From the NCBI GenBank assembly GCA_963664295.1, contig OY760935.1:416001-480000 (forward strand): a DNA stretch of 64,000 nt, written 5' to 3'. Below are positions 3,414-3,820 of the stretch, piece by piece. The translations under genes and the position numbers were made by a program. Source of the DNA: Candidatus Altimarinota bacterium. Lineage in GTDB: Bacteria; Patescibacteriota; Gracilibacteria; CAIRYL01; GCA-016699755. The notes under the pieces were generated by a model that did not search any database, had not been told where the DNA came from, and saw only the letters and a program-made list of their open reading frames with translations. Every line of letters begins with the position of its first letter. Position 1 is the first letter of the stretch.

Positions 3414-3488
3414 TGGTTGCGGGGGTAGGAATTGAACCTACGACCTTCGGGTTATGAGCCCGACGAGCTACCACTGCTCCACCCCGCG
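3414..3488 (-). tRNA. Initiator tRNA-fMet (CAT)
   Basis: CGCGGGGTGGAGCAGTGGTAGCTCGTCGGGCTCATAACCCGAAGGTCGTAGGTTCAATTCCTACCCCCGCAACCA: cloverleaf, C1:A72 mismatch, three G-C pairs in the anticodon stem, encoded CCA. Confidence 0.97.
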
Positions 3489-3820
3489 TCATTGTTTTGT
3501 TATTACTCTTTCTTCTGTTCGGTCTCATTTTATGAGCCCGCCTGACTAGACTCTCACTGCTCCACCCCGCGTCATTGTTTTGTTGTTACTCTTTCTTCTG
3601 TTCGGTCTCATTTTATGAGCCCGCCTGACTAGATTCTCACTGCTCCACCCCGCGTCATTGTTTTGTTGTTACTCTTTCTTCTGTTCGGTCTCATTTTATG
3701 AGCCCGCCTGACTAGATTCTCACTGCTCCACCCCGCGTTAATCTAACTTTATTTTTTCTTTCTTGGGGGCTCATTTGTTGAGCCCGACGGCCGATTGGCC
3801 TTAGCACTGCTCCACCCCGC
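3489..3820 (-). repeat. Tandem array of four 83-bp units, each starting with the tRNA-fMet 5' end
   Basis: Units 3489-3571, 3572-3654 and 3655-3737 are near-identical; 3738-3820 is diverged. All contain GCGGGGTGGAGCAGTG and CGGGCTCA from the tRNA 5' half. Confidence 0.92.

Follow-up and report, generated by a model that had tools for sequence, protein, structure and literature searches.

What produces a row of broken tRNA genes beside an intact one, and does such a row do anything for its host? The question is raised by a locus in a stretch of 64,000 nucleotides (the window) from a genome of 1.215 Mb (G000; 33.5% GC, a single contig, 100% complete, and apparently CPR-like in size and content). 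Four 5′-half units lie head to tail upstream of a tRNA-fMet gene, and two 3′-half copies follow it downstream (Table 1). Three tRNAs with the anticodon CAT were called in the genome, and only this one is of the initiator type, with the C1:A72 mismatch and the GGG/CCC anticodon stem recognized from sequence and folding. The scanned neighbours encode CinA, a RecF-type ATPase, a Fic protein and one product without assignment. A 61-aa ORF at 3343-3528 runs through the tRNA and was judged spurious.

Table 1. Features of the tRNA-fMet locus (window coordinates).
Feature	Position	Strand	Basis
Intact initiator tRNA-fMet(CAT), encoded CCA	3414-3488	minus	tRNA calling; features read from sequence
Unit 1, 83 bp: tRNA 1-17, 14-nt insert, anticodon arm with inverted loop copy, A-rich tail	3489-3571	minus	
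Unit 2, 83 bp, identical to unit 3 throughout	3572-3654	minus	
Unit 3, 83 bp	3655-3737	minus	
Unit 4, 84 bp, diverged	3738-3821	minus	
GGCC-AATC-GGCC hairpin of unit 4, at D-loop position	3800-3789	minus	
Extended anticodon-stem hairpin, unit 1 (same in units 2 and 3)	3520-3540 (3603-3623, 3686-3706)	minus	
Extended anticodon-stem hairpin, unit 4	3767-3785	minus	
Sigma70-like promoter match, 9/12, extended -10, upstream of whole array	3888-3915	minus	consensus match only
Bidirectional terminator-like hairpin, GCGAAGC loop, directly after CCA	3384-3404	minus	
175-bp downstream unit: terminator hairpin, inverted T-arm copy, T-arm split by ~68-nt insert, acceptor 3′ strand, CCA	3239-3413	minus	
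83-bp downstream unit: inverted anticodon-arm piece, altered anticodon and T loops, acceptor 3′ strand, CCA	3156-3238	minus	

An earlier note on this DNA had described a 16-mer repeated five times at an exact 83-bp period. The five copies are present, all on the minus strand (plus coordinates 3472, 3555, 3638, 3721 and 3805), but their spacing is 83, 83, 83 and 84 bp; TRF returned an 83-bp period with 3.2 copies, 98% matches and a score of 520. Chance is excluded as the source of the sharing, as none of 1,433 random 200-bp windows had a 12-mer in common with a randomly chosen tRNA. Each unit opens with tRNA bases 1-17, continues with an insert of 14-17 nt in place of the D-loop and the 3′ side of the D-stem, and picks up the tRNA again at CGGGCTCA. 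The 3′ strand of the anticodon stem follows (CCGAA in units 1-3; CCC and then AAG in unit 4), the anticodon loop has gained about 6 nt (AATGAG), which are an inverted copy of CTCAT, and the 3′ end is an A-rich tail. The units had been described as 5′ halves with the 3′ half replaced; they are more complex than this, with an insert in the D-arm and an anticodon stem that retains its 3′ strand. The identity of units 2 and 3, from which unit 1 departs at only two bases, leaves no unique spacers, in agreement with the view that the array is not a CRISPR.

The hairpin that had been taken as new and conserved folds as described, but its stem is the anticodon stem of the tRNA, lengthened by the inverted copy of the loop, and in no unit does the anticodon loop stay both exposed and unchanged. 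The hairpin shows no compensatory change between the unit types: in units 1-3 the stem carries one G.A mismatch, and in unit 4 the loop-closing T-A pair is lost. Folding of whole units is weak (z -1.1 to -1.6 as RNA and -1.9 to -2.3 as DNA). For the 83-bp downstream unit the predicted fold, also with a weak z, is a CCA-ended mini-tRNA-like shape. The first ~90 nt of the 175-bp downstream unit are similar in another genome of the same family (G004).

Half-copies occur at many tRNA genes of this genome. Among its 37 intron-free tRNA calls (three intron-containing ARAGORN calls were left out as spurious), exact 5′ copies lie upstream of 8 and 3′ copies downstream of 16, so that 20 of the 37 carry one or the other; the corresponding load in three related genomes is 1/41, 5/40 and 6/33. 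The restriction of 5′ halves to the upstream side and of 3′ halves to the downstream side, noticed at fMet (3′ copies at +175 and then +83 bp), holds genome-wide, with reversed polarity at 0 of 37 tRNAs. Such polarity is bound to result whenever a tandem duplication or an insertion spares one gene. Short units cluster at 80-85 bp at eight arrays (fMet on both sides, Ser-GCT, Ser-GGA, Tyr, Glu, Phe and His), independently of the length of the tRNA. Some Tyr and Leu units include the gene's own upstream flank, and perfected stems are seen in Ser units.

The non-tRNA portions link different loci. The scaffold of units 1-3 (ATCTAG..AGG and CCGAACAGAA in unit 3) is common to the 5′ units at tRNA-Ser(GCT) of the same genome (p 0.003-0.013), and the non-tRNA part of unit 4 matches the 5′ unit at tRNA-Ser(GGA) (p 0.01), which its tail resembles. 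In the cross-unit comparison 15 of 45 pairs gave p<0.05, four of these 15 within one locus. That fMet and Ser(GCT) units have a non-tRNA scaffold in common indicates that units move between tRNA genes. Within this genome the scaffold motif is found at these two loci only, and the 19 other genomes of its order that were scanned do not contain it; two near-identical viral stretches that contain it have no tRNA and were taken as chance matches. In addition, a T-loop insert of ~70 nt recurs behind six different tRNAs.

Relatives carry similar tRNA halves together with a gene. The arrangement is a tRNA half with a hairpin in one of its loops, then a gene for a GIY-YIG protein of ~80 aa of the Slx1/UPF0213 type, then the intact tRNA, or the mirror image of this order. 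The present genome has it as well: about 3 kb past the window end, two identical 321-bp cassettes lie upstream of tRNA-Pro(TGG) (G000:C1:482635-483353; L031), each made up of a 5′ half whose anticodon arm contains a hairpin and, after it, an intact 82-aa GIY-YIG ORF. This cassette is a candidate for the autonomous element of the genome.

A direct counterpart of the fMet units was found in a genome of another family (G111; L083/L099). Its fMet leader breaks after GAGCAGTG, carries a 16-nt hairpin insert, resumes at CGGGCTCATAA, adds an inverted ATGAG and then reaches the start codon of the nuclease; the three breakpoints are the same as in the window units. Half-copies are present at 3 of 29 fMet loci of relatives, all three with a GIY-YIG ORF. 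In one fMet array (L020) a 290-bp gene-bearing unit is followed by two gene-less units of 82 bp. Gene-less 5′ units of 42-93 bp also occur at 4 of 32 cassette loci, and one genome (G010) has gene-less 5′ units of 80, 95 and 121 bp with the cassette hairpin beside intact cassettes. The cassette hairpins, of CCGCC/GGCGG or CCCG/CGGG type, sit inside the tRNA halves at 29 of 32 loci compared with 3 of 99 background windows, a descriptive figure in that the pattern was drawn from those same 32 loci and includes at least one false match (L080).

Homologs of the nuclease were detected in 159 of 200 genomes of the class, a count that includes weaker, possibly Ssn- or YhbQ-type matches. Among the best 29 of about 460 matches, selected for their likeness to a query that is itself linked to a tRNA, 28 lie no more than 400 bp from a tRNA and the 29th ends in a cut tRNA, while 2.6% of the G000 genome lies within that distance of a tRNA; a second copy of a tRNA end accompanies 24 of these 29 loci by a 14-mer test. 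The protein has 78-98 aa and one domain (PF01541), a minimal GIY-YIG domain of Slx1-like fold with invariant Y, Y-G-T, R, H and E residues. By profile and fold it is nearest to UPF0213 and Slx1 (PDB 1ZG2 and 1YWL; best sequence matches at E 6e-17 and 9e-16), and no NCBIfam family scored above its cut-off. The nuclease tree, in which 6 of 27 inner branches are strongly supported, groups by tRNA isotype (nine Asn rows with 97/97 support; the fMet pair with 100/97), and the proteins of 5′- and 3′-type fMet cassettes are sisters.

With moderate confidence we therefore regard the four units as gene-less, tandemly amplified derivatives of a tRNA-lodged GIY-YIG nuclease cassette that are likely co-transcribed as a leader. 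Architecture, polarity, scaffold sharing and the co-occurrence with a nuclease gene are direct observations. By analogy with Ssn, Slx1 and SegB, the nuclease would nick the hairpin- or cloverleaf-folded single-stranded DNA of the tRNA gene, or the hairpin of the cassette. Repair by fold-back copying and recombination would then duplicate one half while one gene stays intact. Fold-back copying would perfect or extend a stem, here by copying ATGAG from CTCAT, and would account for the inverted copy of the loop as well as for the perfected stems of the Ser units; selection for one intact gene would account for the polarity. The ORF would have been lost or never copied. Unequal recombination, which would explain the identical copies, may have amplified units 1-3 recently, unit 4 being older or a separate arrival. 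Transcription would probably yield a leader of ~390 nt that RNase P cuts off, tolerated rather than useful, and the array at this locus is probably inert.

Several observations count against a cassette origin. Units 1-3 are without a complete CCGCC/GGCGG hairpin. The G111 match comes from one genome, and fold-back copying could have produced ATGAG twice independently. Furthermore G004, which is 99% complete in 60 contigs, carries gene-less halves at 6 of 33 tRNAs, including a 5′ unit at Ser(TGA) and several long 3′ units like those of G000, and no small GIY-YIG gene was found in it, so that some units persist across genera without the nuclease. The unit tails were also considered as remnants of the nuclease ORF, with p<0.05 for only 1/29 and 0/29 comparisons, and a likeness of the tail to the 3′ end of the G111 gene was lost under shuffles.

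These tails and the G004 halves would suit an origin without any nuclease, in which quasi-palindromic tRNA genes undergo slippage or template switching and minisatellite expansion, leaving local duplication debris. Polarity would then be the geometric result of tandem duplication, and the upstream flank within Tyr and Leu units would be expected of it. Such debris leaves unexplained why one scaffold serves fMet and Ser-GCT and one T-loop insert six tRNAs, why the breakpoints recur in G111, and why 20 of 37 tRNAs are affected here and so few in the kin; we consider this origin improbable.

The earlier note had itself favoured a co-transcribed array of tRNA fragments, acting as a processing or regulatory RNA or as a decoy of an anticodon nuclease or integrase. 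In such a functional array, RNAs of 83 nt would be cleaved out of the fMet leader and would control the maturation of the tRNA or act as decoys of anticodon nucleases. Co-transcription is plausible, since the array as a whole is preceded by the sole minus-strand promoter-like site (3915-3888) and a hairpin resembling a terminator comes after the CCA; these positions make the 5′ units probable parts of the leader RNA, to which the 3′ units probably do not belong. The promoter evidence is weak, with three matches found against 1.6 expected. The constant length of 80-85 bp at eight arrays, the persistence of some units between G000 and G004, and the derivation of E. coli RttR from one of the repeats in the tyrT operon (PMC3318445) would also fit a functional RNA. 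A regulatory or decoy role, in contrast, drew no support. With its loop sequestered or altered in every unit, the array would make a poor substrate for an anticodon nuclease, and no PIN/VapC gene was found in the genome. The predicted pairing of the acceptor stem was 0.99 for the tRNA alone, 0.12 with the leader, 0.39 with a shuffled leader and 0.98 when only local pairs were allowed, so that the equilibrium prediction has the leader competing with the fold of the tRNA. Scrambling the inverted copy shifted pairing only from 0.98 to 0.94, and the hairpin thus gives the tRNA no measurable protection.

Conservation points in the same direction. A unit upstream of fMet is absent from 7/7 genomes of the same family. 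Among 400 class genomes the fMet anatomy with a D-loop insert was found in one besides this genome, namely G111, where it is the leader of a nuclease cassette, and the array thus differs from a conserved structured ncRNA in having a cassette leader as its sole homolog and no compensatory pairs. In Rfam only the tRNA itself rose above noise. A metagenome scan for the half with the D-loop insert gave 24 matches, all of them ordinary tRNA genes apart from one truncated at a contig end, and a viral scan gave none. A phylum-wide pattern matched 58 of 400 other genomes and was set aside as too loose, the hits being apparently ordinary tRNAs with longer D-loops. In GTDB an fMet 5′ half precedes a second copy by 69-99 bp at nine loci, one of them a repeat of a locus already counted; they include six Bacteroidota and two Patescibacteria and have periods of 76-92 bp with other hairpins, the hairpin of the present array occurring in none. 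Taken with the folding results, this makes a functional RNA array quite unlikely.

Attachment-site scars, or decoys, of integrase-mobilized islands that repeatedly entered and left fMet are a very unlikely source. Integration into tRNA genes is a well-known origin of partial copies (PMC9897764), and, like att scars, the 3′ fragments downstream of the gene terminate in CCA. The genome, however, has a single tyrosine recombinase (PF00589), ~25 kb from the nearest tRNA, and the suggestion of an integrase decoy drew no support, no integrase having been found near the locus. Units of 83 bp with rewritten internal loops are unlike clean direct repeats, the genes inside related units encode GIY-YIG nucleases rather than integrases, and 5′ halves are the rarer att product. 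No RAYT/Y1 transposase was found in the genome. Finally, an assembly artefact could have miscounted the identical units 2 and 3, but units 1 and 4 differ from them, the genome is one complete contig, and the same architecture recurs at 20 tRNAs here and in other genomes, so that we hold this to be least likely of all.

The nuclease cassette can be compared with several described systems. Ssn nucleases (cd10448) cut single-stranded DNA at their own NTS/SRM hairpins, and like the cassette they pair a small single-domain GIY-YIG gene with its own DNA hairpin repeats, of which gene-less copies are dispersed; the authors liken this layout to the IS200/IS605 and REP/RAYT systems, and the accessible text of the paper contains no mention of tRNA (Chenal et al. 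2025, PMC11893778). The repeats described here differ in being built from tRNA halves, with flanking hairpins that are not of the SRM/NTS type. The tRNA-linked proteins appear to form a separate group of ~80 aa, with a further protein of this genome, which from motif likeness we take to be Ssn-like, on a long branch outside the 29 tRNA-linked ones. Of 41 SRM-like motifs in the genome one lies within 400 bp of a tRNA, which is no enrichment.

SegB, a free-standing GIY-YIG homing endonuclease of the T4/T6 tRNA clusters, recognizes a T-arm motif and causes tRNA-segB units to multiply in tandem by recombination (PMC2330249, PMC13096335). The cassette shares the free-standing GIY-YIG gene beside tRNA genes (28 of the best 29 homolog loci). 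SegB is encoded by phages, cleaves double-stranded DNA and multiplies tRNA genes of full length, whereas the cassette is chromosomal, encodes a minimal Slx1/UPF0213-type domain and amplifies broken halves with rewritten loops. SegB-type homing endonucleases have an extra DNA-binding domain beyond the catalytic one, which is absent from the single-domain cassette proteins. Prokaryotic Slx1-like/UPF0213 proteins have the same minimal stand-alone domain; they have been described as conserved and inherited vertically, with a predicted function in repair, Slx1 itself being a junction-specific nuclease, and a mobile, multi-copy, tRNA-lodged lifestyle is not among the features given in the accessible text (PMC1564403).

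In attL/attR pairs, as in the cassettes, foreign DNA lies between an intact and a partial copy of the tRNA, in fixed polarity (PMC9897764). The cassettes differ in having no integrase, cargo of 60-250 bp instead of kilobases, and common forms of both the 5′ and 3′ type, and both cassettes and units show internal loop insertions and inverted copies. The tyrT repeats of E. coli lie downstream of the tRNA and hold a short 3′ piece, and we know of no nuclease linked to them. They resemble the array in being tandem, beside a tRNA gene and co-transcribed, one of them yielding the small RNA RttR (PMC3318445). The array and its cassette work like Ssn/SRM and SegB, yet in some of the features compared they depart from both, and from integrase scars and CRISPR as well.

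Cassettes of a tRNA half and a GIY-YIG gene were not described in the literature searched, in which subscription journals were thinly represented, and the tRNA-lodged nuclease cassette is apparently undescribed so far. The locus is good evidence for it and adds a direct link, in that breakpoints of a gene-less fMet array match the leader of an intact cassette; the burden of the host genome (20/37 tRNAs) is extreme, and its scaffold is common to different tRNA genes. If the assignment is true, a widespread, uncharacterized branch of minimal GIY-YIG proteins gains a role, with the cassette nuclease a candidate structure- or hairpin-specific cutter of single-stranded DNA alongside Ssn. Fragments of tRNA genes that are usually read as integrase scars could then stem from an integrase-free nuclease cassette, which would bear on island prediction and tRNA annotation in small-genome bacteria. 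A bolder version, which we put forward tentatively as possible but rather doubtful, is a minimal mobile element: the ~80-aa Slx1-like nuclease would read the single-stranded tRNA cloverleaf and drive duplication-insertion of a cassette whose ends are borrowed from the target tRNA, and non-autonomous scaffolds of 80-85 bp would retarget by swapping in host tRNA arms, having colonized more than half of the tRNA genes of this genome.

Many cassette ORFs (among them L020, L070, L081, L085 and L089) lack a stop codon before the downstream tRNA gene and continue into it, with C-terminal peptides such as SGVAQW. One cassette is carried by a tRNA called Ile(TAT), a rare anticodon (L078), a call also made at L097.

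Often a downstream unit includes a stretch of its cognate tRNA in inverted orientation (by longest antisense match, 16 loci with against 21 without, p 8e-5, a value partly inflated by the self-complementarity of tRNA stems). Long downstream units of 154-189 bp (up to about 240 bp in kin) occur at 3239-3413 of the window, at about 12 other tRNA 3′ flanks of G000, and in kin at L201, L209, L210, L216 and L223 (G004) and L132 (G002). Their order is a terminator hairpin, its loop often GCGAAGC or GCAAAGC, an inverted copy of the cognate T-arm, a loop containing TATAAT or TCTAAT, a T-arm split by a large insert, and the CCA end; no ORF was seen in any. They are partly conserved between G000 and G004 and may represent a separate, older family. 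At tRNA-Lys(CTT) (G000:C1:136190, minus strand) a downstream unit of 276 bp has tRNA bases 20-75 at its end, nearly a whole second tRNA copy, and lies between two 154-bp units.

An AT-rich ORF at 2517-3137 of the window, membrane-anchored in appearance and without a Pfam match, converges on the 3′ half-copies and was possibly acquired at this tRNA hotspot. A 76-bp tandem array of 4.4 copies at 52693-53025 has GTCATTGC..GCAATC hairpin motifs resembling NTS/SRM repeats, and one lone element related to it lies at about 19300-19500. A GIY-YIG gene for an Ssn-like protein of 95 aa is located at G000:C1:622.6 kb (L033). A Fic-domain gene (5730-6923) is inserted between recF and metG-like genes, its start overlapped by a perfect 22-bp tandem duplication of 2.3 copies (5683-5733). 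At 58443-58566 a 24/48-bp coding repeat encodes a low-complexity tract rich in Ser, Pro and Glu.
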